Positions 332 to 23,592 of a DNA stretch of 31,485 nt are shown here, piece by piece. The stretch is from a virus. Taxonomy: Duplodnaviria > Caudoviricetes. Positions within the stretch are counted from its first letter, which is position 1, and each line of letters begins with the position of its first letter. Made by a program: the position numbers and the translations under genes. The notes under the pieces are model-generated. The model was not told the DNA's origin. It saw only the letters and a program-made list of their open reading frames with translations, and searched no databases. Location: the IMG/VR virus record IMGVR_UViG_3300031857_017809, positions 1 to 31,485 of that record; one strand, written 5' to 3'.

Positions 332-3300
332 CTATTTCTGTTCCTTCACCGGTCTTCCCCATGCCTGGGGACGTTCCTCCATCGACTTCCTGAACCTGGC
401 TGCCAGCTCCTGCACCTTCTTCAGCCGATCCTCGCGTTCGTCTCCATTGGCCTCTCCGACCTTCTTAGCCGCGAACCGCAGGGCCTGGATGCGCTTATCC
501 TGCCCCAGTCCCAGGCCCGCCGCCCGGTCCATGACCCAGTCCACATCCCTACTCGACCAGGCGTTGGGCTGCTTCATGACGCCAGTGATGGTCCCGGCCC
601 ACCATTTCGCATCCTTGCCGGTGGCGGTGGCCAGGCGTCCCCAGTTGCCCAGGTAGCCCTCCAACAGGTGATCCAGGATCCGGGCGTCCTGCCCGGTCAG
701 GTCTTGTAGTTCCTTGCTCATGGCGGAAGCCCGTTGGGTATCGCGGCGTTCCACGTCCAGGCCCTGCTCCCAGGCCGGAATGATGTTCCGATCGCGGAAG
801 GTATCCCAGTTGGTCGCCGCCTCGACCAGCGGGGCGAATCCGCCCATCAGCGATCCCACGTCATTGATTGGCAGCAAGGCCCCGGCCATTGACTTACCAT
901 ACCCGTCCAGGGCATGCTTGGCCGCCTGTTCGTCGCCCTCTACATTGGCCATGACGTAATCCGCGATGCGTTCCGCTCCCGACCAGAACACCCCATGTCC
1001 GTATTCCTTGGGTATGGCGATGTACCCGCCCGTTCCATCCGGGATCATGTAATGGAAGTCCCGGATCGCCGGTTGGATCTGCCGCCATTTGCGTTCCTCA
1101 TCGTCGCCGCCCGCAACCTTGCGCAGCAGGTTCAACAGAATGCCCAGCCCGGCCATCACCCCCATGGTGATGACGTAGCGGTTGACGAATGCCCTCCACA
1201 ATTTTTCCGGCACGGTTCTTCCGGTTTTTATGTATTCGACTACCTGTTTCCATTTACGCATCGTCACAGCAAGGCCCTGAATGGCCGGATTGAAGAACAG
1301 AATCACGCCGGTCATCTGCCGTCCGTACCGGCCTTTCTCGGCAAAGTCGATCAACCCCCGGCTCTTGTCCCCGGCATACAGCAAGGCGTCGTACTCGCTC
1401 ATGCCCTGTTTCAGAGCCTTGGCGTAGGCTGACCGGAACTCAGCGTTGCGATTGAGTCCTTCCATGGCCGCCCCGCCTTTTTCCAGCCATCTCCACCAGT
1501 TTCTAGGACTCATCACCCGCACGGCCCGTCCGCTCCAGCCCTGGCGTTGCAGGTCATCCAGGTGCTTCCACAGTTCGCCGGCCAGGACCGCTCTTCCCTC
1601 GACGTACCCGCTGAATGATGCTCCGGCCAAGGCCCGCAGCTCGTCCACCCTCCGGTCGCCATCCAGGGTTTTCAGTTTCCCGTAACTCTTAAACACGTCC
1701 GCTAGGCCGGAACCGGTCGCGGTTTCGCTGACCACCAGGCGCGATTCGGTGTCGCGAAAGGCGTTGCGCAGCCAGAACGCCGGGAAATTGACGATCCCGC
1801 CCCGCATCAGCCGGGTGATTCCACCCCACACCTTCGCCAAGATCCAATCCGACCCCAGCATCCGGGCGGCCTCCAGGCTAGCCTCAATGTCCGGATGGAA
1901 CACCCACCACTGCGTCTCCCCATTATCCCGCACCGCATACGGCTTCCGGCCGTTGACGGTCTGTTGCCCCTGTTTTCTGGCCTCCTTTACCACTTCGTCC
2001 GGGACCACATGCCCCAGGTCATGGAGCACGATCCGCTTGCCCTCGTTGCTGCTCAGCGGTTTGACCAGGGCCAGCATGGACTCATTGCGATCGGCCCTGG
2101 CGATGGCGTTCAGGGTGCCCTCGATCAGGTTGGCCAGCGGGTTGCCGATCATCCGGGTTGATCCGGTGAACTTCTTTCCGGGCAGGATGGTTTGCGTATC
2201 TCGATCGAACTGGCGATGGGTGTCGATGTAGAACGAAAACACCTCGCCGGTGTCCGGATCCACGATGGTATCTCCGTCCACCATCCGTTGCAGTTGATCC
2301 CCGCTGAACACCCCCTTGCCGGCCATGTAGGTCAGCACCTGTCGCGACCAGGCGCGATACCGGCGCAGGAACTCCTTGAGATTCTTGCGTTCGGCCTTGG
2401 CCTGCGGATCGGCCTGAGCCGCCTGTTCCCGTTCCTCCAGGGCGGTCCGGGCCTGATCGTAGTCATTGACCAGCCCACCGCCGATGCCGGTCAGGGTGGC
2501 CACCTTTTCCCGCGCCTCGCGGATCAGGGTGGTTCCGTACTGGTTGGTCAACGGGGCGAGGGTCCGCATCAGTTCCAGGTGTTCCGCGCTGGGGAACCGG
2601 TCGCGCTTCTTGCGAGCCTCTGCACGATCCTGGATCTCCACCAGCGGAGCCTTGGCGAACGTCATCAGCTCATGCTTCAGGGCCGCTGCCGTTCCGCTGT
2701 CCTTCACCACCTCCGCAAAGGTCTGGATCAGGGCCTCGATGTCCGCCTGGCTCGCCAGCCCATCCACCGCGTCGGCCACGTCGGCCATGAAATCCGCCGC
2801 CCTGGCCCCGGCCGCCTGCATGATCTTCGATCCCCGGCCATAGGTACGCTCCTCGATGCCCATGGCCAAGGCCTGGTCGATCAGGCGCAGCGTCTCCTGC
2901 GGATCTTCCGCCGTCACCGGGTCCAGCAGCCAATCCCAGTTCATCCGCTGCCCGGTCTGGTGGTCCACCACCGGCCGCAAGGCGGCATCGGTCAGCCCCT
3001 CGTTGAAGATCATCCGCAGCACCTTGCCATCCGTGCCGGCCAGCAACCGGTTCAGGATGCGGAAATTGTCGCTGGGTGCCAGATCCTTCTCATCCTTGCC
3101 CTGACGTTCCCAGGCCTCCAGGAATCGGTTGTAGGCCGGGGCGAACACGTTCTGCCAGTTGAACCGCGTCCGGGTCCAGAATCCCATCCGCGTCTCCGGG
3201 ATCCGCGGCCGGCTTCCTCCGGCATCGTCCCCGACCACGCCCGACCACATGCCCCTCACAAATCCCATCGACCGCTCAAAGGCATTGGTCCCCTTGCTGG

Positions 3301-4225
3301 CCTCGGCCAAGGCCGCCGGCAGGTTCACCAGCCCGGCCAGATTCTGCGCCAGGCTGCCGCGCTCGATCACCTGGGCGATGCCTTCGACGTTGGCCACGGT
3401 CCGCTCGCTATCCGGCAGGCCCAAAAAGGCCCTGGCCGCGTTCCCGTAGTCCTCCATCGCCTGGCGCACCGCACCCGGAATCCCCTGCCGCATGACCTCT
3501 GCCAGGGCCGGTCCTCGGCTCTCGGCTTCTGCCGGGTTCACAATCCACCCGCGCAGGAACTCTGCCCAACCCTCGTTGTCCAGATACTTCTGCCGTTCAT
3601 CCTTGGTCAGTCCGTGGGGCGGCTCCGATCCGAACCGAGCGAACTCGGCCAGTTGCAAGGCCATCCCGGCCGTCCCCTCGGTCGGCAGTTCGAATGTCCA
3701 CGCAACCTGGTGCGAAATCTCATGGGCGGCGTTCTCTAGATCCCCATGACGCCGCAAGGCGGTCAATCCGGTATTGGGATCAAACACCCCGCCTGTTCCG
3801 GCCGGGGCCTCGCCCTCATACAGTCCAGGATCCCCGGCCCCGGCATCGACCATCGCCTGCCGCAGATTGCGGATCACCGTCTTCAGTTTGTCCACCGTGG
3901 CCGGGGCATCCGGACTGCCCTTGGGGATGGGGGCCACCTTGATCCGATTCCCTGCCGCCTGTTTCGCCGGGGCCGCCTGCACGGGTTGAGGACCCGGTAC
4001 GCCTTCCGTACCCGGTACGCTCGCAACGGGGACCTCCACCGGATCCACGGCATACCCCAGCCGCCTCAGTTCCTCCCGCACCGCCTCGATGTCTTCCACA
4101 GCCGCGGCAATCAGACCCTCAATCACCGCCTGCGGATCCGGCGTCAGGGCCATGTGCTCGCGGATCTTCTCTTTCAGCAGATCGGGCACCTGGGCCAGAT
4201 CCAAGCAGCGTGCCAAGGTCGGCAT
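332..4225 (-). CDS. Large polyvalent protein, 1297 aa: zincin-like metallopeptidase (HExxH) plus C-terminal LPD38-like domain; probable internal virion/ejected protein
   Basis: AAHEISHQV...NEGWAEF motif; C-terminal RNAEF...IDF...G...ILFFNPAIQG...YIAIPKEYG...PLVEAATNWDTF...IIP...LDHLLEGYLG pattern recalls LPD38; SD GAGGAGG upstream. Confidence 0.8.
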   Translation of the reverse strand: MPTLARCLDLAQVPDLLKEKIREHMALTPDPQAVIEGLIAAAVEDIEAVREELRRLGYAVDPVEVPVASVPGTEGVPGPQPVQAAPAKQAAGNRIKVAPIPKGSPDAPATVDKLKTVIRNLRQAMVDAGAGDPGLYEGEAPAGTGGVFDPNTGLTALRRHGDLENAAHEISHQVAWTFELPTEGTAGMALQLAEFARFGSEPPHGLTKDERQKYLDNEGWAEFLRGWIVNPAEAESRGPALAEVMRQGIPGAVRQAMEDYGNAARAFLGLPDSERTVANVEGIAQVIERGSLAQNLAGLVNLPAALAEASKGTNAFERSMGFVRGMWSGVVGDDAGGSRPRIPETRMGFWTRTRFNWQNVFAPAYNRFLEAWERQGKDEKDLAPSDNFRILNRLLAGTDGKVLRMIFNEGLTDAALRPVVDHQTGQRMNWDWLLDPVTAEDPQETLRLIDQALAMGIEERTYGRGSKIMQAAGARAADFMADVADAVDGLASQADIEALIQTFAEVVKDSGTAAALKHELMTFAKAPLVEIQDRAEARKKRDRFPSAEHLELMRTLAPLTNQYGTTLIREAREKVATLTGIGGGLVNDYDQARTALEEREQAAQADPQAKAERKNLKEFLRRYRAWSRQVLTYMAGKGVFSGDQLQRMVDGDTIVDPDTGEVFSFYIDTHRQFDRDTQTILPGKKFTGSTRMIGNPLANLIEGTLNAIARADRNESMLALVKPLSSNEGKRIVLHDLGHVVPDEVVKEARKQGQQTVNGRKPYAVRDNGETQWWVFHPDIEASLEAARMLGSDWILAKVWGGITRLMRGGIVNFPAFWLRNAFRDTESRLVVSETATGSGLADVFKSYGKLKTLDGDRRVDELRALAGASFSGYVEGRAVLAGELWKHLDDLQRQGWSGRAVRVMSPRNWWRWLEKGGAAMEGLNRNAEFRSAYAKALKQGMSEYDALLYAGDKSRGLIDFAEKGRYGRQMTGVILFFNPAIQGLAVTMRKWKQVVEYIKTGRTVPEKLWRAFVNRYVITMGVMAGLGILLNLLRKVAGGDDEERKWRQIQPAIRDFHYMIPDGTGGYIAIPKEYGHGVFWSGAERIADYVMANVEGDEQAAKHALDGYGKSMAGALLPINDVGSLMGGFAPLVEAATNWDTFRDRNIIPAWEQGLDVERRDTQRASAMSKELQDLTGQDARILDHLLEGYLGNWGRLATATGKDAKWWAGTITGVMKQPNAWSSRDVDWVMDRAAGLGLGQDKRIQALRFAAKKVGEANGDEREDRLKKVQELAARFRKSMEERPQAWGRPVKEQK

Positions 4226-7967: not shown

Positions 7968-10900
7968 CGCAGCACCCTCCTGAGCGCAGCCAGGTCTTCG
8001 CCCAGCTCCCCGGCCAGCGCCTTGGCCACCCGGTATCCCTCGCCCTCGATCTCCAACCGCAGGTCATCCGGCACCTTGGCCAAAGCCTCCCCGCTGATCC
8101 TCTCGGCTTCGCGCAGGGCGCTGGCCAGATCCTGGGCTTGGGCCGCATCCGCGACTTTGGATCCGATCGACACCACCCCAGTCAGCGGATCGACCCGCAT
8201 CCCGTCGCCTTCCACCAGGACCACCCGCTTGAACCTTCGGCCCTCGCGGATGCCTTCCATGCGGCCGGGCAAGTCCTTTTTTACGATTTGTCTCGTCGGT
8301 GCATCCGGGTCTGCGGCTTGCCGTCTGCTCTGTCTCTCCGCGGCTGCCAATGCTGCCACTTCCTTGGGCTTCCGTCCCGTGGCGTCTTCGCCCGGGATCC
8401 GATGCGGAGCCTCCTGCACTGGCTGGTCCTCGTTTTCCTCCGGTTCCCCCAGCCGCGCCAGCGGCCGATCCGCCAGGATCCGTTCCCACACCGCCGGTTG
8501 CCCGAAGGGCAGGAAATAGCGGTAATTCCACTCCTTATAGACCGCATCCACCCCGGCATTTTCCAGCGATCCGCGCCACGTATCCAGCTCCCGGCTGGAT
8601 GACTTGCCAGTGATCTCGGCCCGCATCTCCCCGCCAAAGCGCACCCGCTTGATCTTCCAGCCGTTTCTCAGGACGGCCGTCTGCCCGTTCTCCACGGCCT
8701 GCATCACCTCCGCTGGTGCCAGGATCTTGGCATTCGCATCGGCCACCCCCAGGTCCTGCATCACCTGATCGATCTGATACGGCTGGATGACGCGCCCCAG
8801 GATGGACCGACCATCCTGCAAGGTCGCTCGCATGGCCCGCACGTCCGTACTCGGCAGACGATCCCACACCGGCAACAAGGCACCGGAAAACAGGTGCATG
8901 GCTTCGACCCTGAACTCCGGAGCCTTGGCCAACTCGTCAGACCATAGGCTTCTCGCCGTCTCCTCGTCGATCTGTCGGTATTTTCCGAACTCAGACCGAG
9001 GAAGAAGGTCAGAAAATCCATTGATGCCGATCTTGGAATAGGTCGTTTCGATTCGTCCCTGTTTATCGGTCTTTGTTCTGTCGCTGCTTGACAGGATCCA
9101 TACCCGATTGCTGCGTTCATGACGAACAAAAGAGACTTCCCCGGATCTGGACCAATTCCTGCCATTTGCCAGAGCCTGATCGAAGTCGATGGTCTTGTTC
9201 CGTTTCGATACCTGCAAGTCATGCCGGATGGTCGTGGCCCCGCTCTTGGCATCGGTATGGACCACCTGCTGCCCGGTTTCCTCGATCTTGTCGGCCTTCA
9301 GGGTTTCCAACCCCACGTCCAGGGTGCCATTGGCCTTCTGAATCTCGATGGTCTTGTCCAACCGCTCCTGGAAGGCGTCGAACACCTGGTTCTGCATGTC
9401 GGTGCTCAGACTCAGCATGCGGTTCAGGAATTGCCGCATTTCCGGGGTTTCCACCTTCCCGGATGCGCCATCCCGGATCGCCAATCCCGTCTCGGCCTCA
9501 AACTCCGCGACACTGACCCCAGGGATCTTCCCGTAGGCCAGATCCTTGGTGAACCAATCCAGGGCCGTCTCGGCGGCATCGCTCTCCAGGTTGTCGGCCG
9601 CGCTGAACAGCCCCCCGGATCCGGCCTGCCGCTGGCCCTTGGTCAAGGCTCCCAGTTGATCCAGGCGTCTGGCGATGGTGGAAATAAACCGCTTCTGCGC
9701 CCGCAAATCGGTCGAAGTCAGGATGAAGGTAGGCGGCTGGGCCTGATTGGTCCGATGGCTGCGCCCCAGGCCTTGCAGGGCGCTGTCCGCCCGCCATCCC
9801 GGTTGCAGCACGTAATGCCGCCGGGGCCGCTGGTTCTTGGCCTTGCGATCGGCGTGGAAGCTGAACCCGGTGCCACCGGCCGCGCTGAAGATCAGGATCT
9901 TGCGTTTGTCATCCTGGAACTCGGCCGCCTCCTTCATGGCCTTGGCCTGGGATCGTTTCTCCTGCACCGTCTTCCAGGATCCGTCCGCCTGCTTCTTGCC
10001 GACCACCCGCACCGTGCGGCCCGACACCTCGGCCACCTGATCCGGCCCGAAGGCCGCCAGGATCTGCTCCATCGGCCCGTCCGGGGTGCGGATGTCTGCC
10101 AGGTTCTTCAGCAGTTGATTGCGCATGGCCACGGCCTGGGGGTTCTCCACCAGGTTGCCCTTGCTGTCCTTGACCGGCTCCGACGTGGTATTGCCATTTT
10201 TGTCCGTGACCTCCTGGTATTGCACGGTCGGAAAGCCGTTCTTCACCGCCTGCATCAGCATCTCACGCGGCGTCAGGTCCAGACTGGACAGGTCATCCTC
10301 GTCGTCATCTTCTTCTGCCTGTTTTGCCTCCCTGGCCTGCAAGGCCCGCTTGGTGGCCGCTTCGTTGGTGTTCACCAGTTGCACCACCGGGGCATCGCCG
10401 CGTTCCAGATCGGCCTGCATGCTCTGGATCACCGCCGGCATCTGCATGCCGGTCAGCACCTGGTTGAAGAATCGCTGGTGAGCGTTCCAGAACGCCCCGA
10501 TGGCGTTCTTTCTGGCGTCTCGGTTCTTTCCCTGCCGCGTCGATTCCAGGGCGGCCCAGATGTTGCGCAGCACCACCTGCCAGGCCTTGGCCAGCTCATT
10601 GTAGATGGCCGTCTGATCCTCGGTCAGGTTATGGGTCAGGCGCTCATAGCCCACCCCGCGAAAGCTGATCGACCGGGCCAGATACCGGCCGGTGGCCTTC
10701 AGATCCCGGGCCACGAGTTCCATGCCCGCCAGACCAGACGCCGCAATGTCATTGATGAACGCCTTGGCATCGGCAAAGGCCGTCCCATCGCCCCACAAGC
10801 CCAGGCGCGTGGCATAGGCCAGGTTGCTCACCTCGGTGGCTCCGGTGGCGCTCACATACAGCACCCGAGCCTTGGGCAAGGACTGCTGCAACAGCAAACC

Positions 10901-13900
10901 GGCCAGCGCCATCTGCGACGGTTTCTTGACCCCACGCCGACCCTTGATGGCCACCGCATTTCCCATGTTGTGGGCCTCATCGAAGGCGATCACCCCGTCA
11001 AAGTCCTTGCCCAGCCACTCCACCAGTTGCTGGATGCGACCGCCCGGTTTGACCTCTTTCCCATGGTCAGCATTGGCCAGGGCATCCTGCGCCCCGGATT
11101 TGGTGGCCAGGGTTTTGTAGCTGATAAAGGCGATGCCATTGCGTGGCGGGATTTTCCCCGTGGCCTTCACGTTCTTGATGGCAAACAGATCCTCGGCCTT
11201 CCCGCCGAGTCCGGTCCAATCGCGTTGGGCATCCGCGATCAGTCCCGGCTTCATGCTCACCCACACCGCCCGCTTCCGGCCATGGTTGGCCTGATCCAGG
11301 ATCACCCCGGCGATGGTGCGGCCCTTGCCCACCCCGGTCCCGTCCCCGATGAAATATCCTTGCCGCTGACCATTGGGCAGCAGGTTTTCCATGGCCGCCC
11401 CGGCCCGGACCAACTGCTCCAACTGGGCATCCGACAACCTTCCCTCGGTGATGACCTTCTGGTCCAGCCGCGGTTCATAGGTCACCCGCGGAGCCTTCAC
11501 CGACGCCATGGCCTGCGATTCCACCAGCTCGGCAGGATGCGGCTTGGTTCCTAGGATGGCCAGAGACGGTTTGTAGGTGGCGTAGGTTTCGCCCTGATCC
11601 TCAACCGGCCCGCTGTCGGCCTGCTCTACTCGGACGGATCCGTGACCAGGCTGCTCAACGTGTCCAGCAGGTAGGTCCCCGCGCTTTCCAGATCCATCTG
11701 CGACAGTTCCTGCGGATCCACGTCCTCCAGGGCCGCCATCGCTCCCTTGGGATTCTGGTTCAGATCGCTGACCAGGCAGTCGATTCCGTCGCGGTCCAGG
11801 GCGTCGATCCCCCGATACCGGCGGTACAGTTCCGGAAACTGCTCCAGGGCTTCCGCCACCAGGCTCGCCACTCCCAGGCTTCCCGGCTGCACCGTCTTCT
11901 TGTCCTTCTCCAGAATCGCCTGGGCCGCCCGATTGAGCGGGTGGCGGTTCAGGGTTTCGCGCAGCTTGAACAGGCGCTTGACGTCCATCGCGGACTCCTT
12001 TGAGCAGTGTACCCAGTTCAGCCAGCGATGCCACCGTTCCCGTCACCGCCGCCTGCGTTCCCAGGGGCGTTTCCCCCTCGGCCGGCTTGTCGATGACCAG
12101 CAGCCGGGTCCCGAAGGTGGTGCCATACTTGTGGTACACCGTCCCCGGCACCTCGATGTTGGCCCGAACATGCGCTTGCCGTCCCAGCGTGGCCCACCAC
12201 TCACGGTAAGCCTTGGCGTTGAAGGCCATGCCTTCGCCCACGATGGCCACCAGCCGGCCGCCCGGCGGCAGCAGTTGGAAGGCTTGCTCGATGTGCCTGG
12301 CCCCGGTCAGGAGGTCCCGCTTGTCGGTTCGCCCGGCGGTGGCGCTGAACGGCGGGTTCATCACCACCACGCCCGGCTGCGGCTTGCCCTGGGCCGAATA
12401 GATCGCCGCCAGATGGTCGGCGTTCTCCGTGGTCATCTCAATGCCCAGCGTCTCGGCCAGCTTGGCCCGCCGCTCGGACAGTTCATTGCCCAGCACCCGA
12501 TCCCCGGCCATACGCCCGAACACCGCCAGCGACCCGGTTCCCACGGATGGTTCCAGGTACACCTCACCCGGCCGCAGGTTGGCCACCCAGTTGGCCATGA
12601 AGGCGTAGCTGGGCGGCGTGCTGAATTGCTGGTGCGAGATCTGCTCCCCGGTCCTGGCCGTCTGCGTCGGCAGGTCACGTTCCAGATCGGCCATGAACTT
12701 CAGCCCCTCGGCTGGGCTGTCGGCCGTTGGGCTGGCCAGATGGGGGTGCCGGGCAATGACCTTGTTCACCGCCAGTTGCAGCGCCTCGTAGGCGTCCTGC
12801 ACCTTGTAGGCCCCCTGGCCCTGCGTCCCGCCAAAGGCCTGGTCGCAGATCCGGAACAGCTTTTGCCAGTTCAGGGCTTGGCCGGCCTCATCCAGGGCAT
12901 CCGCCAGGGCCTCGGCCGCGGCTATGGTGCGGGTGACTTGATCCTGGGGGTTTCGCACGACCGGCGCAGGCATGTCCACAGGCTGCGTTGGGGGAGCTTC
13001 CTCTGCTCCTGGACTCGACTTTGGAGCACCAGGTGCAGCGTCATGCGGGAGATCCTGCGCTGTACGATCCGGCATTGCCGGTGCTGCCGCAGGACGTTCC
13101 GACTCAGGGCGTGTAGATTCAGGGCGAACTGACGCAGGTGGTTGTTCGGCATGTTTTTTCTTTTTTGATTTAATTTGCACCACGTCTTTAGATCCTACAT
13201 TATTAACCCTAACTAGAAAATTACCATTCCATTGCCTTTCATAATTTGGCCAACCGCTTGTTTCTTTAGTGTTATTATGGATTGTTTCAATTTGATCTGG
13301 TGTCAGGCCAAAATTGACAAGACTATGCCATTCAGACTTGAGTTTTGTGCCGTCACTAAAATAAAAAACCGGGTCTGACCTACCTAAACCAGCTTGTTCC
13401 GTAGTTATTTTTACCAACGTTGTTTTGCGCCATGCTTCACCATTTATCGCTCCTGCGGCAGCAGCAAGCGACTCAAATGTTTTTCGATTTATTTCACGTA
13501 TAGAACCAACCTCATACAAAGGCTCTCCATCGCTTCCTTTTTCCTTGAGCAGCTTTCCGGTATAGAAATGCAGTTTCCCACTGTGAAACCAACCTCCAGT
13601 ATCATGGGTATCGTTATCTAGTGACACCGAACGCAACATTGATATTCCGGCTTCCGGTCTATTTTCTGCGCTGTTCCAACTCGGACGTTCTGGATCTGCA
13701 ATATTCCAGCGATAACCAACGGCATATCCTGGTGGCAATGTCCATTCATTATTGCTCGTTGACACGTCACTTTCGTCTTTTATCGTTTCGTTCTCGTCGC
13801 CTTCACCGGCGCGGATAGAAACGCCAGCAACACTGGCCTGATCGGCTTGTCCGATCTTTTGACCTTGGTCCATGCGACCAAGGTCATTTTTATTACCGGG

Positions 13901-15985
13901 TTTTGCTTCCGTACCCGGTGTGGCGTCCTGGGCCTTCTTCACGAACCCCCGCACCCGCGCCCCCAGGGCATGGATGCTAGGATCCGCTCGGTGATCCTTG
14001 ATGACCTGCTCCCAGGCTTTGACCCGTCCGGGATCGCTGGGCAGCTTCAGCATGCCGAACTTCCCGTATTCCTCCCCGATGGCCCGCTCGATGGTGGCAT
14101 TGGCGGTGGATGGCGTGTTCTTCAGGGCGTTCTGCACGTCCGGCCGCTCGGCCACGGCCCGCGACAGGTCGATGGACGCCTCGGTCACGGATCCGGGTTC
14201 CACAGCGGGCGTTGTGGGCTTCAGAACGGGCTTGCTGGCCAACTGCTCATCCAGCGTGGCCTGTCCCTCGGCCGGCGTGGCCGGTTTCGGCGTCACCTCG
14301 CCTTGGCGTCCCAGGGTCTTCAGGATGGCCTTGGCCTTGCTCACCACCTTGGGCGGCTTGTCGTTCTTCTTCTTCTTGGGCCGCTGGGCCTCCCGCCGCA
14401 GCACCTCCACCGCGCTGTCCCCCAGCAGTTCCTGATCCTCCGGCTTCATCGTCTGAATGTCCGGGATCTTCGGGGCCATGCTGACCTTGGCGAACGCGGA
14501 TCCGCCGTTGCGCCAATCAGTTACGCCGCTTGGTGTTTCGGATGTGCTTCGAATATCATTCGGAGCCGTCGCCGGCAGGGCATTGGATTCCTCATCCAAC
14601 CGCTGGGCATGCTCCGGATGCTCCTGCTCCAGATCGGCCATGGCGCTGGAAATGAAGGCTTCTCCAGCCTGACCCTGATACTTCTCGCCGGCCTTCAACA
14701 GGGCCAGCATCTGCGCCTTGTACTCCTCATAGCTGATCGGCTTTTTGCGCAGCGTCCGTTCCAAGGCTGCCGGCGGCGGGTTCGCCACCTCCTCAACAGG
14801 GACCGGCTGCCGGGCCACCGGTCCGGTGTCCACGTCCGCAGACACGCCCTGCGGACTTCCCCCGGCCCTCTGAGCTTCTTCGTCCGCCAACTGCTCGGCC
14901 AACCGCGCCTTGATCGCTGCCAGCTTGTCGACGTCCGCCTGCCGCAACGTGGCATCGGTGTCCCGCAACTCTGGCCGCACCTGGCGCGGCATGTCCGGAA
15001 CCTCGCTGACCAGATCCGTCATGCTCTGCCGCTGCAATTCCGGCAGCATCTCACGATACAGCGCATCATCCTCGCGTTGTGCCGTGCGCAGGTGGAGCTG
15101 TTTAGCAAGCTCGTCACTAGATAGTTCAGCCCCTGCGAACCCCGCACCCATCAGACCGCCAACCGCCCCCGCCACGGTCAGCCGCCTGGCCAATGTGGCT
15201 GTATCCAGGGCATTAGGATCCTCGCCGCTCATGGCCTCCCACACCGCATGTCCCAACTCGGTGACGACCTCCTCGGATCCCTCCCATCCGGCATCCTTGG
15301 CCAGTGTCATCAGTCGGTCTCGGATCATCCGGACGCCATGCTCCTTGCCGGCTCCCAGGATCACCCGCTCTGCACCAGTCTTGCCGAACATGCTGGGGAT
15401 GGCCGTCTCGATGGTCCAGTTGGCCAAGCCTGACCCGATCCCGTTCTGCCGGGCGGCCACGGCCCCTTCCCGCAGGGCCAGGGGCTGCACCGCTGCCCCG
15501 ACCTCCAGGGCCGCTCGCAGCTTCGGTAGCGATGCCAGGGCCTTCACCCCGCGCACCGGGGCTGCCAGCGGACCGCCGGCCAGCATCAGCGGAAGGTCTG
15601 CCGCCACCCCGCCCGCCCCCTGGCGAATGGACGTGAGCAAACCAGGATTGGCGATCTGCACCGATTCCGCGGTACTCTCGGCATCCTCCTGCTCCGATGG
15701 ACTCCCCAGGCCCAGGGCCTGCTGGGTTGAGCTAATCGACCGCATCGCCCCCGACACCTCTGGAGCCAGCCATCCCAAGCGACCCAAGCGGGAGCGCAGC
15801 CGGGCATCATCCTCGCTCGCCTGCTCCTCGCGCAGGATCCCGGACTCGCTCATCCGATCCAGGTTGCGCAGGGCATCCGCCTCAACGCTGCCTGCGCCCT
15901 CGATGAACCGGTCCACCGGATCCATGTCCTGGGACACCGGATCCAGACCAGCCGCACGGATGAAGGCATCGAGCTTGCCGGGCAT
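7952..15985 (-). CDS. Giant polyvalent DarB-like protein, 2677 aa: ejection-protein-like N-terminus, N6-adenine methyltransferase-like domain, Strawberry-notch-family SF2 helicase
   Basis: MTase motif I LEPSVGTGSL and motif IV VMNPPF; helicase GDGTGVGKGRT (Walker A), FDEAHN (Walker B), YVSATGA, QGLGRSHRTNQ; follows the ejection-like genes; SD GGAG. Confidence 0.9.
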   Translation of the reverse strand: MPGKLDAFIRAAGLDPVSQDMDPVDRFIEGAGSVEADALRNLDRMSESGILREEQASEDDARLRSRLGRLGWLAPEVSGAMRSISSTQQALGLGSPSEQEDAESTAESVQIANPGLLTSIRQGAGGVAADLPLMLAGGPLAAPVRGVKALASLPKLRAALEVGAAVQPLALREGAVAARQNGIGSGLANWTIETAIPSMFGKTGAERVILGAGKEHGVRMIRDRLMTLAKDAGWEGSEEVVTELGHAVWEAMSGEDPNALDTATLARRLTVAGAVGGLMGAGFAGAELSSDELAKQLHLRTAQREDDALYREMLPELQRQSMTDLVSEVPDMPRQVRPELRDTDATLRQADVDKLAAIKARLAEQLADEEAQRAGGSPQGVSADVDTGPVARQPVPVEEVANPPPAALERTLRKKPISYEEYKAQMLALLKAGEKYQGQAGEAFISSAMADLEQEHPEHAQRLDEESNALPATAPNDIRSTSETPSGVTDWRNGGSAFAKVSMAPKIPDIQTMKPEDQELLGDSAVEVLRREAQRPKKKKNDKPPKVVSKAKAILKTLGRQGEVTPKPATPAEGQATLDEQLASKPVLKPTTPAVEPGSVTEASIDLSRAVAERPDVQNALKNTPSTANATIERAIGEEYGKFGMLKLPSDPGRVKAWEQVIKDHRADPSIHALGARVRGFVKKAQDATPGTEAKPGNKNDLGRMDQGQKIGQADQASVAGVSIRAGEGDENETIKDESDVSTSNNEWTLPPGYAVGYRWNIADPERPSWNSAENRPEAGISMLRSVSLDNDTHDTGGWFHSGKLHFYTGKLLKEKGSDGEPLYEVGSIREINRKTFESLAAAAGAINGEAWRKTTLVKITTEQAGLGRSDPVFYFSDGTKLKSEWHSLVNFGLTPDQIETIHNNTKETSGWPNYERQWNGNFLVRVNNVGSKDVVQIKSKKKKHAEQPPASVRPESTRPESERPAAAPAMPDRTAQDLPHDAAPGAPKSSPGAEEAPPTQPVDMPAPVVRNPQDQVTRTIAAAEALADALDEAGQALNWQKLFRICDQAFGGTQGQGAYKVQDAYEALQLAVNKVIARHPHLASPTADSPAEGLKFMADLERDLPTQTARTGEQISHQQFSTPPSYAFMANWVANLRPGEVYLEPSVGTGSLAVFGRMAGDRVLGNELSERRAKLAETLGIEMTTENADHLAAIYSAQGKPQPGVVVMNPPFSATAGRTDKRDLLTGARHIEQAFQLLPPGGRLVAIVGEGMAFNAKAYREWWATLGRQAHVRANIEVPGTVYHKYGTTFGTRLLVIDKPAEGETPLGTQAAVTGTVASLAELGTLLKGVRDGRQAPVQAARNPEPPPAQSGGPGDSGEGQEDGAAGKPGSGEPGGGSPGAVSGTVPPVSGDRRPGPRRNRLPGQRSEPESQGSDGGPGGRGSAGTVADGSGKRGDLPAGHVEQPGHGSVRVEQADSGPVEDQGETYATYKPSLAILGTKPHPAELVESQAMASVKAPRVTYEPRLDQKVITEGRLSDAQLEQLVRAGAAMENLLPNGQRQGYFIGDGTGVGKGRTIAGVILDQANHGRKRAVWVSMKPGLIADAQRDWTGLGGKAEDLFAIKNVKATGKIPPRNGIAFISYKTLATKSGAQDALANADHGKEVKPGGRIQQLVEWLGKDFDGVIAFDEAHNMGNAVAIKGRRGVKKPSQMALAGLLLQQSLPKARVLYVSATGATEVSNLAYATRLGLWGDGTAFADAKAFINDIAASGLAGMELVARDLKATGRYLARSISFRGVGYERLTHNLTEDQTAIYNELAKAWQVVLRNIWAALESTRQGKNRDARKNAIGAFWNAHQRFFNQVLTGMQMPAVIQSMQADLERGDAPVVQLVNTNEAATKRALQAREAKQAEEDDDEDDLSSLDLTPREMLMQAVKNGFPTVQYQEVTDKNGNTTSEPVKDSKGNLVENPQAVAMRNQLLKNLADIRTPDGPMEQILAAFGPDQVAEVSGRTVRVVGKKQADGSWKTVQEKRSQAKAMKEAAEFQDDKRKILIFSAAGGTGFSFHADRKAKNQRPRRHYVLQPGWRADSALQGLGRSHRTNQAQPPTFILTSTDLRAQKRFISTIARRLDQLGALTKGQRQAGSGGLFSAADNLESDAAETALDWFTKDLAYGKIPGVSVAEFEAETGLAIRDGASGKVETPEMRQFLNRMLSLSTDMQNQVFDAFQERLDKTIEIQKANGTLDVGLETLKADKIEETGQQVVHTDAKSGATTIRHDLQVSKRNKTIDFDQALANGRNWSRSGEVSFVRHERSNRVWILSSSDRTKTDKQGRIETTYSKIGINGFSDLLPRSEFGKYRQIDEETARSLWSDELAKAPEFRVEAMHLFSGALLPVWDRLPSTDVRAMRATLQDGRSILGRVIQPYQIDQVMQDLGVADANAKILAPAEVMQAVENGQTAVLRNGWKIKRVRFGGEMRAEITGKSSSRELDTWRGSLENAGVDAVYKEWNYRYFLPFGQPAVWERILADRPLARLGEPEENEDQPVQEAPHRIPGEDATGRKPKEVAALAAAERQSRRQAADPDAPTRQIVKKDLPGRMEGIREGRRFKRVVLVEGDGMRVDPLTGVVSIGSKVADAAQAQDLASALREAERISGEALAKVPDDLRLEIEGEGYRVAKALAGELGEDLAALRRVLRCLGG
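11626..11988 (-). CDS. Nested alternative-frame gene, 120 aa, helical with acidic C-terminal half, function unknown
   Basis: AAAGGAGTCCGCG directly before the ATG; codons in this frame mostly end in G/C (CTG, GCC, GAC, CAG); the host frame here is G/P/R low-complexity sequence. Confidence 0.8.
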   Translation of the reverse strand: MDVKRLFKLRETLNRHPLNRAAQAILEKDKKTVQPGSLGVASLVAEALEQFPELYRRYRGIDALDRDGIDCLVSDLNQNPKGAMAALEDVDPQELSQMDLESAGTYLLDTLSSLVTDPSE

Positions 15986-22055: not shown

Positions 22056-22723
22056 AGCACCCTCCCGGTCACGGTGGCCCTGACCTTGAAGCTGCGATTC
22101 CCTTGGGTGCCACTGCGGTTGATGATCGCCACGCTCACCGTGGCCCCCGCCGCCGGCACGCTGATGGTCGTACTCACGCCGGTATAGTCAGTCCCGGCCT
22201 TCGCCGTCCCATCCACCGTCACCACCGTCGCCTCCACACTGCTACCGCCATCCGTCCTCTGGATGGTGAACACCGCTGGCGTCACCACCTCAGGCAGCCT
22301 CGGCGAACTCGGGTTGAACGCCCACACCACCCGCACCACCAGGGCCAGGGCATGCAGCCCCGACCCCAGCATCTCGATCCAGTTGTCCCCCGGCGACAAG
22401 GCCACCGTCAGGTCCGTCTGCACCCCGGCCGGCACCGCCACCAGTTGTCCCGATGGATACCGCACCGTCATGCCCTCGCTGGCCGTCACCCGCAGGGCAT
22501 AGGTCGTCGCCTCGGTGGCCAGCCGCACCACCGCCCCATCCCCGCCCCCGGCGGTCTTCTGGATGGTCGTTGATCCCAGCACCACCACCGCGACCTGATC
22601 CGCGCCCCGCACATACTCCCGACCCCCGACCAGACCCGGAGCCACCCGCTGCCCCAGCGTCAACCGCTGGGCATACCGGGCCTCCTGGCCCCGTGGGCAC
22701 CGGATCCGGGCCGGACGCATCAT
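22052..22723 (-). CDS. Virion protein with C-terminal Calx-beta-like (Ig-like) domain, 223 aa (start reassigned to MMRPAR)
   Basis: FTIQRTDGG...TVDGTAKAGTDYTGVSTTISV......VSVAIIN....GNRSFKV matches the Calx-beta pattern; ATGA overlap with the adaptor stop. Confidence 0.75.
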   Translation of the reverse strand: MMRPARIRCPRGQEARYAQRLTLGQRVAPGLVGGREYVRGADQVAVVVLGSTTIQKTAGGGDGAVVRLATEATTYALRVTASEGMTVRYPSGQLVAVPAGVQTDLTVALSPGDNWIEMLGSGLHALALVVRVVWAFNPSSPRLPEVVTPAVFTIQRTDGGSSVEATVVTVDGTAKAGTDYTGVSTTISVPAAGATVSVAIINRSGTQGNRSFKVRATVTGRVL

Positions 22724-23592
22724 TCCCACCCATCCCGCCGCCAGGCGCTCAGGCTGAACGTTCTGCCCGGTTGCTGGCTGGCTTTGAAGGATTCCAGGTA
22801 GGCCGTGTGTTCGGCCAGCAGTTTCTGCGCCTTGTCCTTGTCGTTGCACATGGCCCAGGCGGCCCGGCCGATCACCGCCACCGGATCCAGGGCCAGGGTA
22901 TCGGTTTCCTCCTCCAGGTCGCTCACCGCTGACCGGTACTCGATGCGGATGGTCCCCGCGCCCGGATCGGGCCACAGCTCCATAACCTGCACCGGTCCCA
23001 GCTCCGCCGTCAGAACCGCAGACGATCCACCGCCTGGCGTCAGGGTCGGCACCCCGCTCCATCCCGCCCCGCAGTCCTCGATGGTCACGCTCTCGATGGC
23101 CCCGCCGTCCGTCACCAGGGTCAGCACCGGATCATGGCCGTAGGTGGCCCGGGTTCCCCCCGACACCACCACGGCATCATCATCGGCATATCCGCTGCCC
23201 CCGTTGTCCACCGTCACCCCGATCAATCCGGTGGTGGCGGTCATCTGATACTTCTGCGGCCACCCGGTCGGCGTGGGCTGCTCGCGCCGGTCAATGCCAG
23301 CCGTCAGCACCGTGCGGGTCGTCCCGTCCGACCATTCCACATGGTCAGGCTGCCCCAGCAGGCAATCCGCCGGCAGATCCACGAACCGCTGACCACCGGC
23401 CACCGCCTTCTCCACCACCCGCGCCTGGCGCAGGTAGGTATGGGTCACGGCCAGGTCGTCCTGGGCAGCGTTCAGCCGGCCCAGGATCTCGGCATCCAGA
23501 AGCGGGTTGGCCACGTCGTCATCGACCAGGCCCAGGCGTTGTTTCACCTTGGCGATGGCCCTGGCTACGGTCATACGGGTCGCTGCCGGCAT
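22720..23592 (-). CDS. Head-tail adaptor (tail tubular A/gp4-like), 290 aa, with an inserted beta module
   Basis: I..VKQRLG...ILGRLNAAQDDL helices, DLPADC, GWPQKY...LWPDP...IEY pattern; SD GGAGG; position after the capsid gene. Confidence 0.75.
   Translation of the reverse strand: MPAATRMTVARAIAKVKQRLGLVDDDVANPLLDAEILGRLNAAQDDLAVTHTYLRQARVVEKAVAGGQRFVDLPADCLLGQPDHVEWSDGTTRTVLTAGIDRREQPTPTGWPQKYQMTATTGLIGVTVDNGGSGYADDDAVVVSGGTRATYGHDPVLTLVTDGGAIESVTIEDCGAGWSGVPTLTPGGGSSAVLTAELGPVQVMELWPDPGAGTIRIEYRSAVSDLEEETDTLALDPVAVIGRAAWAMCNDKDKAQKLLAEHTAYLESFKASQQPGRTFSLSAWRRDGWE

Follow-up and report, generated by a model that had tools for sequence, protein, structure and literature searches.

The phage-like viral record IMGVR_UViG_3300031857_017809 (Duplodnaviria; Caudoviricetes), a stretch of 31,485 bases analysed here in full and referred to below as the window, has its genes on the minus strand and encodes a giant polyvalent protein of 2677 residues. 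In this protein an adenine methyltransferase (MTase) domain is joined by a linker to a Strawberry-notch (SNO) helicase, and the DNA encoding the linker contains a second open reading frame (ORF) of 120 codons in the +1 frame (Table 1). This nested ORF is very probably a real, translated gene, as judged from the sequence comparisons reported here. It is widespread: some 200 related sequences from phages and plasmids have it at the same position. It has apparently gone undescribed; no account of it was found in the main texts of the openly accessible literature.

The nested ORF in the window

The ORF was proposed in a sequence-only reading of the window, and its coordinates bear out the arrangement described there: same strand, +1 frame, wholly inside the giant gene. 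The strong Shine-Dalgarno (SD) motif AAAGGAG said to precede the ATG is present, but at a spacing of 6 nt and not 7. The frame starts just after the MTase, which ends near residue 1331, and stops about 22 codons short of the helicase region (residue 1476; AAA_34 from 1482), again as described. A preference for G/C-ending codons, like that of the real genes here, had also been noted. GC content at the three codon positions is 0.69/0.37/0.85, and the third-position value compares to 0.73–0.84 in 13 reference genes of the window. When a codon model was trained on these 13 genes, the nested frame scored +0.41 log-odds per codon over the interval, compared to -0.57 for the host frame and -0.68 for the third frame, so that codon bias favours the nested frame. 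The interval is the sole part of the 8-kb gene with a positive +1-frame codon score. The product was said to be basic at the N-terminus and acidic at the C-terminus, and the first 30 residues carry a net charge of +4 and the remainder -11.

An open frame alone is weak evidence at this locus because, when synonymous host codons are resampled, the +1 frame of the window's linker is open with p = 0.33; the evidence from the family decides. An assembly frameshift is not the cause, since positions 11154–12055 recur with no difference and no gap in a contig of 902 nt that comes from a separate run (X2). A related contig from run X7, probably a DNA run, has a 9-base insertion at window position 11960, within the nested ORF, and both frames are preserved.

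Standard gene callers had been expected to miss the ORF. The complete plasmid records checked do annotate only the giant over this locus (the gene table is incomplete), but on short contigs that cut the giant frame the ORF was called as a protein (13 proteins, contigs of 514–7923 nt).

Conservation of the open frame and its start signal

Homologous loci were collected by way of the helicase because single-sequence searches with the nested protein matched nothing but itself. The collection comprised 26 viral loci, the best 80 loci each from viral, genome and metagenome contigs (out of 154, 309 and 412 confirmed, respectively), and one annotated plasmid. From these 267 loci, 45 duplicates and 14 loci without an MTase match (mostly contig ends) were set aside, leaving 208 with both domains. 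The host frame was open in 204 of the 208, the window's own record included; the four closed linkers comprise one assembly gap, two frameshifts and one stop that lies beyond the nested ORF.

Each of the 204 intact MTase-SNO linkers has a +1 frame that runs for 80 codons or more without a stop from one fixed anchor, at which the codon was ATG in 194 and GTG in 4. A conserved SD-ATG in homologous linkers, which the sequence-only reading had proposed as a check, is borne out. After dereplication at 80% helicase identity, all 114 remaining +1 frames were open (87–174 codons), compared to 31.1 expected by chance (median per-locus chance 0.19). Among the control frames, the +2 frame was open in 1 of 114 loci and the +1 frame inside the helicase in 4–16 of 114. 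The nested frame usually stops 11–43 codons upstream of the helicase (110/114), and the loci that carry it span GC contents of 0.36–0.73 and several phyla.

The start signal was assessed through the synonymous codons of the host frame across the 114 homologues. The host Asn, Asp or His codon that supplies the A-T of the nested ATG ended in T in 106 of 107 loci, compared to 44.2 expected from each locus's own usage, and in all 28 loci with a GC content above 0.6 (7.5 expected). Host codons that form the SD were likewise enriched: Leu NTG in 74 of 103 (41.9 expected), Glu GAG in 66 of 81 (36.5 expected) and Gly GGR in 55 of 75 (27.6 expected). Because the loci are related, z-values computed from these counts overstate their significance. 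The host residues L-K-G that encode the SD in the window correspond in the family to L-E-G-I-R-N/D-D, the host motif that forms the anchor where the MTase ends. These codon choices indicate that the nested start signal is selected at sites that are silent for the host protein.

Selection on both reading frames

The ratio of nonsynonymous to synonymous substitution rates (dN/dS) was compared over 69 disjoint pairs of loci. It was 0.43 for the nested frame, 1.47 when these bases were read in the host frame, and 0.115 for the helicase; the nested value was below the host-frame value in 68 of the 69 pairs, as had been predicted. The comparison was repeated in a frame-blind manner because the alignment had followed the nested protein. 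In 33 close pairs, 295 of 485 isolated substitutions fell at nested third positions, and 289 changes were silent only for the nested protein compared to 77 silent only for the host. By these substitution patterns the nested frame is under purifying selection.

When the nested protein was recoded at random, the host frame was expected to be open in 3.1 of 108 loci, with 6.5 stops expected per locus. Judged by this recoding, stops are actively kept out of the host frame as well, beyond chance. The dN/dS results thus support the earlier suggestion that selection on protein sequence acts on the small gene and that the giant uses its off-frame reading as a linker, with the qualifier that the host frame is guarded as well.

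The nested protein

A hidden Markov model (HMM) built from the 114 nested products recovered 192 of the 204. The family has the motif N-x-x-P-L-N-x-x-A ... L-Y-x-L-Q-L and no invariant residue. The median net charge is -7 (5–95% range -18 to +1) and the median pI 4.7, with a neutral to basic N-terminus; Cys (0.4%) and His (1.1%) are rare and none is conserved. AlphaFold2, run on 21 sequences, returned a model with eight helices (pLDDT 85.7, pTM 0.79), in agreement with the globular, helical product envisaged from the window alone. The product is thus predicted to be a compact, all-helical, mildly acidic protein of about 13 kDa. The lack of an invariant residue and the fast divergence fit a binding role better than catalysis.

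Searches for relatives gave little. No family in Pfam, PHROGs or PADLOC was common to more than one nested member, the best profile match in the PDB had an E of 0.036, and Foldseek searches of PDB and BFVD with the model gave no match at E 0.001; the best VIA match had a Z of 4.0 (root-mean-square deviation 3.9, 100 aligned). The ESM Atlas yielded no usable match, and no longer fused form was present among 7998 scored candidates, which is weak evidence. Among cultured phages, none matched the AAA_34 lobe of this helicase family or the one nested member tried, and no solved relative of the SNO core was found at E 0.001. Blank fold searches, here and for the second family described below, do not show that the folds are new.

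Other nested proteins in the same slot

Bacteroides phage BS-TP4 and its relatives carry an unrelated acidic nested gene in the same slot of their SNO giants, in 30 of 30 distinct loci. The proportion of nonsynonymous differences was below that of synonymous differences (pN < pS) in 29 of 29 comparisons to one reference. The product is modelled with a pLDDT of 90 in an alpha/beta pattern that differs from the main family; this model had no fold match (best Z 3.5, none in BFVD). Acidic +1 ORFs beside the same host motif also occur on a Leptolyngbya plasmid and in a Bacteroidota genome (Table 1). The three nested families could not be linked to one another (hhalign probabilities 0.8% and 0.06%; HMM E 0.04 and 0.9). 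Sequence comparison therefore suggests that the slot in SNO giants is filled by at least three non-homologous small acidic proteins.

Free-standing copies

Among 401 Bacillota genomes searched with a profile, six matches were found: three nested genes (one of them the search centre), one decayed relic (L401) and two intact free-standing genes (L398 and L400). Neither intact copy has an MTase or helicase nearby, and both keep the same start as the nested copies. L398 (L402 4768–5154, G1129:C12) lies in an integrated element that is small and satellite-like and that also encodes an integrase, a replication initiator and a DnaC-like loader. L398 is preceded by a scrap of MTase C-terminus and was therefore cut out of a giant gene; its product has a net charge of 0. 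L400 (L403 9276–9710, G1181:C106) lies in a defence-like island, with McrB/McrC-like, WYL and split HD nuclease genes on one side and ADP-ribosylglycohydrolase and HIRAN genes on the other. The former host frame at L400 contains 10 stops; the small frame is intact and 42–44% identical to nested copies. No relatives of the L400 protein were found among plasmids or viral contigs.

A further copy on a planctomycete contig (L405) is cut by the contig start and has no helicase frame after it (2 of 251 genomes matched, one being the search centre). Searches of 107, 14 and 125 relatives revealed no further free-standing copies. The intact free-standing copies independently support the small protein as the unit on which selection acts, and they show that it can be kept without an enzyme in cis. 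The sequence-only reading had described the gene as genetically locked to its enzyme. In the linkers it is indeed universal (204/204), but the free-standing copies, and short plasmid SNO proteins that have no such gene, show that the lock is not absolute.

Association with giant SNO helicases

The distribution of the nested gene suggests that it tracks giant SNO helicases rather than MTases, which makes the helicase the likely partner. In one complete 65-kb phage without an MTase match (L025), the nested gene is kept before the helicase (3600–3962; HMM E 1.5e-7). An extra helical domain precedes the nested gene in this phage, and a seemingly similar domain follows the nested gene in L021. Among MTase-only giants of the H66/F116 type, 28 distinct loci were inspected and none had a nested ORF that is both acidic and gene-like; six of these loci have ORFs of at least 70 codons, all net basic, one of which is a separate downstream gene. 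A Vibrio phage giant also had no nested ORF of that kind. In the annotation of F116 (L277, NC_006552.1 54227–54250) the giant is divided into two genes, with the break inside the MTase match, which may reflect a sequencing error or a real frameshift; in H66 the giant is one gene of 3787 aa.

The gene is present on conjugative plasmids as well as in phages. Methylomonas loci carry it, and the Methylomonas plasmid copy adjoins traI, a coupling protein gene, traF and traD. In 401 Pseudomonadota genomes, an unbiased sample, AAA_34 was found in 22, with 20 full-length matches; both giants among these (3526 aa, the search centre, and 4815 aa) carry the nested gene.

Possible function

The nearest functional model is DarB of phage P1, a virion-carried MTase-helicase that protects injected DNA (PMC9024508, PMC12810830, PMC10695390). 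Its neighbour Ulx, a protein of 146 aa, is listed as aiding DarB incorporation (PMC9024508, PMC10695390), so that P1 resembles the present case, as far as these sources describe it, in having an MTase-helicase giant and a small partner of similar size. The systems differ in that ulx is a separate downstream gene, darB has no gene-like nested frame, and the annotated internal gene of P1, iddB, lies in ddrB on the opposite strand. The giant's MTase had no blastp match to P1 DarB at E 0.01, and the nested profile compared to Ulx gave an hhalign probability of 0.1%. By these two measures the proteins are not orthologues of DarB or Ulx; by analogy, we infer that the host giant may work like DarB.

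We propose, with a probability of roughly 0.45, that the nested product binds the SNO helicase of the same polypeptide and keeps it inactive or transfer-ready in the producer cell. Ribosomes would start internally on the giant's mRNA, and both proteins would be made from one message and inherited together. The giant would be packed into the capsid or passed through a conjugation channel and would then protect the incoming DNA, as does DarB. The small protein would be a non-enzymatic binding partner, either an inhibitor or a chaperone, that is left behind or displaced upon delivery. An enzyme that translocates along and methylates DNA, and that is produced in large amounts to be packed or transferred, could gain from being inactive or unfolded in the producer, and nesting would make the partner hard to lose through recombination among these modular genes. 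The helicase is the most likely partner because the gene goes with giants that carry a helicase and are believed to be delivered as proteins, and is missing from MTase-only giants and short versions. As to its origin, the linker could plausibly have arisen by read-through fusion of an operon of MTase, small gene and helicase.

Several observations weigh against this proposal. The helicase-without-MTase case is a single genome. Short MTase-SNO proteins have no nested gene: it is missing from all six annotated plasmids with the short type and from 18 of the 20 full-length Pseudomonadota matches (frames of 1173–1563 aa), and none of the 24 short versions in total carries it; five partial Pseudomonadota AAA_34 matches also have none. 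The enzyme therefore does not always need the nested protein. Identity among nested proteins is only weakly correlated with identity among helicases (Spearman 0.29), and in 57 of 99 cases the two have the same nearest neighbour; saturation can explain the weak correlation. AAA_34 was not found in the draft genomes of L398, L400 and L401, which a strictly cis-acting partner does not predict. Lastly, no split operon of MTase, small gene and helicase was found, the four closed linkers being of the kinds given above, and the fusion origin is thus unproven.

In a quick helicase tree of 71 rows, the six short plasmid proteins form one branch (support 99) within the diversity that bears the nested gene, although inner supports are weak; this suggests that the short plasmid clade lost the gene. 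One further apparent loss, L146, was rejected and not counted, since it retains an apparent 3' part of the gene joined to unrelated sequence.

The product may instead act on its own against host defences or on other host targets, for instance by mimicking DNA mildly or by inhibiting a host restriction enzyme, and be nested only in order to travel and be expressed with the giant. We regard this as unlikely, although it accounts for the intact helicase-free copies, one in a small mobile element and one beside McrBC-like, WYL and HIRAN genes, for the acidic character of the family, and for a divergence fast enough to suit an arms race. DNA-mimic anti-restriction proteins such as Ocr and ArdA have a very high negative charge and a mimic fold. 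The median charge of the nested family, and the zero charge of the L398 product, are modest for a DNA mimic. The fold searches gave no match above Z 4.0. An independent effector would leave unexplained why three unrelated proteins share a slot in SNO giants and none occupies MTase-only giants.

Somewhat less probable is a role in loading, in which the small protein would direct the giant to the procapsid or the coupling protein of conjugation, in the manner of Ulx and with no inhibition. P1 is reported to load DarB by means of Ulx and DdrB (PMC9024508), and the nested gene occurs in the giant polyvalent versions (in phage virion modules and, in Methylomonas, beside tra genes) and is absent from the 24 short ones. 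However, one family would have to serve both phage capsids and conjugation systems, which have no obvious common loading surface; the lack of likeness to Ulx and the free-standing copies with no cargo gene nearby also argue against loading.

An extension of the helicase-partner proposal is doubtful as a whole. It would make the nested inhibitor a safety catch that silences the giant until injection, in a slot filled by at least three unrelated proteins, with bacteria and satellite-like elements having kept an excised copy, once beside McrBC-like genes, to disarm the incoming enzyme in trans.

The position of the frame, which starts precisely where the MTase ends and in most loci closes a short way before the helicase, would suit a trans-frame product (MTase-small or small-helicase) made by programmed frameshifting, or a coupled restart of the helicase. 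This is very unlikely. The SD and ATG are fixed at silent sites with initiation spacing, GTG is the sole alternative start at the anchor, and the free-standing copies retain the same start; frameshifting needs no start codon, so this fixation speaks against it. A helicase restart after the nested stop was considered and rejected, as an in-frame ATG or GTG with an SD-like motif is present in only 4 of 108 loci.

A selfish insertion of the ShiLan type, in which an out-of-frame HNH homing nuclease without a detectable ribosome binding site is patchily inserted in mycobacteriophage methylases (PMC11855218), shares the architecture of a hidden gene in another frame of a stop-free, disordered host frame. 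This explanation is highly improbable and is largely refuted by distribution: the nested gene is universal in the 204 linkers and not patchy, is fixed across the clade with a selected SD, and sits between domains and not within one, which sets it apart from ShiLan as that source describes it. No HNH or other nuclease family match was found among 108 members, and no zinc-finger motif with conserved Cys or His. Equally improbable is an untranslated by-product of a hydrophilic linker that has few Leu, Ile, Val and Met residues (10% in the linker compared to 21% in the helicase), whose codons give rise to stops in the +1 frame: the chance of an open frame at a single locus is appreciable, as given above, but the 114 open frames, the start signal fixed at silent sites, the purifying selection and the recovery of nearly all members by one HMM argue against it.

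Comparison with known overlapping genes

The overlap architecture has precedents; the nested protein families themselves are apparently new, with a regulatory role that we infer. In phage lambda, Rz1 is fully embedded on the same strand in the +1 frame of Rz, the pair is conserved in many phages, and the products form a complex (PMC6139136). The present gene is similar in being wholly embedded in a shifted frame, with its own initiation signal, and conserved. It differs from the description given there in that embedded Rz1 is a Pro-rich, weakly structured lipoprotein, whereas here the embedded product is the one predicted to fold, and it is the host frame that yields a disordered stretch, the linker of a large enzyme. 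The pair is not a two-component spanin: the host is a DNA enzyme, and the nested family is poor in Cys with none conserved.

The closest architecture, as presented in the review PMC8227390, is that of the hepatitis B virus polymerase spacer over gene S and of the apple stem grooving virus movement protein over the linker between RNA-dependent RNA polymerase and coat protein. In both, the off-frame reading of a constrained gene is a fast-evolving linker that joins two domains, and for hepatitis B virus the review proposes an origin by read-through fusion. Those proteins and viruses are unrelated to the present ones, which are prokaryotic and occur in phages and conjugative plasmids of several phyla, in a slot with at least three non-homologous proteins.

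The host protein itself belongs, by its domains, to the polyvalent MTase-SNO dyad described by Iyer et al. 2017 (PMC5512222), in which an adenine MTase is followed by a SNO SWI2/SNF2 ATPase in giant proteins of phages and conjugative elements. That paper describes the same architecture and names a Methylomonas example; its main text mentions no overlapping or nested gene, and "nested" there concerns a hairpin fold. A DarB-like giant is also described in PMC9144972, where, in the text available, the nested gene is not mentioned.

A conserved gene of phages, prophages and conjugative plasmids of several phyla thus appears to sit in what was taken for a low-complexity linker of widespread anti-restriction-type giants. 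Fully nested gene pairs on one strand for which selection can be shown in both frames are uncommon among prokaryotes. The analysis also adds at least two families of small proteins without a fold match. The gene would be a candidate regulator for the quieting, loading and switch-on of DarB-like giants after delivery, and it can be removed by one change that is silent for the host. Culturable systems exist in the plasmid of Methylomonas or Methylotuvimicrobium (NZ_CP064652, NC_016108) and, for the second family, in Bacteroides phage BS-TP4 with Bacteroides salyersiae as host. Wherever a polyvalent protein has a G/R/A/S/P-rich linker, inspecting its +1 frame may reveal more such genes.

The giant gene and its surroundings

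The features of the window and the additional nested ORFs are collected in Table 1. The giant shows the order of the MTase-SNO dyad, with an adenine MTase (EPSVGTG at aa 1145, NPPF at aa 1210) directly N-terminal of a superfamily 2 ATPase whose SNO lobes contain Walker A (GVGKG at aa 1551) and Walker B (DEAH at aa 1669) motifs. Neither LPD36 before the MTase nor the SnoC winged helix after the helicase appeared in a general Pfam scan (E 0.01), in which no dedicated profile search was included.

Table 1. Positions of the giant gene, the nested gene, neighbouring genes and nested ORFs of other families. Positions refer to the window unless another sequence is named.
Feature	Position	Strand	Remarks
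Nested gene, 120 aa	11626–11988	-	ATG start; +1 frame of giant gene, host residues 1333–1454
Shine-Dalgarno AAAGGAG	11995–12001	-	6 nt upstream of nested ATG; host codons L-K-G
Giant polyvalent protein, 2677 aa	7952–15985	-	N-terminal region, MTase, linker, SNO helicase, C-terminal region
Adenine methyltransferase domain, aa ~1105–1332	11990–12673	-	PHROG and PADLOC matches (1105–1331), motifs
Host-frame linker, aa 1333–1475	11561–11989	-	G/R/A/S/E/P-rich; off-frame reading of nested gene, stop-free
SNO ATPase N-terminal lobe, aa 1482–1797	10595–11542	-	Pfam AAA_34, E 7e-111
SNO helicase C-terminal lobe, aa 1971–2228	9302–10075	-	Pfam Helicase_C_4, E 7e-82
Second large polyvalent protein, LPD38	332–4225	-	Pfam-scan context of giant
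SU10-type head-tail adaptor	22720–23592	-	E 3e-13; marks podovirus-like virion module
Bacteroides-phage nested family, 103–144 aa	L283–L325 ~3713–4150; L279 5710 onward		Acidic, often ending W-D
Leptolyngbya plasmid nested +1 ORF, 160 aa	L278 5704–6186		Acidic; SD AAGGAG; same host motif
Bacteroidota genome nested +1 ORF	L395 ~760–1170		Acidic; same host motif

Further neighbours of the giant gene encode a Gp80 fibre-like protein and a protein with a weak match to T7 gp14. Since these stand together with the SU10-type adaptor and the LPD38 protein, a virion-ejected role is plausible, and the giant is likely ejected from the virion, judging by its gene neighbourhood.

Two other features of the giant gene were observed. 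A segment of low GC content (0.32–0.52 compared to about 0.65) lies at window positions 13100–13950, corresponding to host residues ~690–960; its codon fit is poor in every frame, yet it is stop-free, and the polyvalent protein probably gained this segment recently as a module. Long antisense ORFs lie opposite the giant gene on the plus strand, at 9119–11554 (811 aa) and 11747–13132 (461 aa), and are probably shadows of GC-rich codon use.

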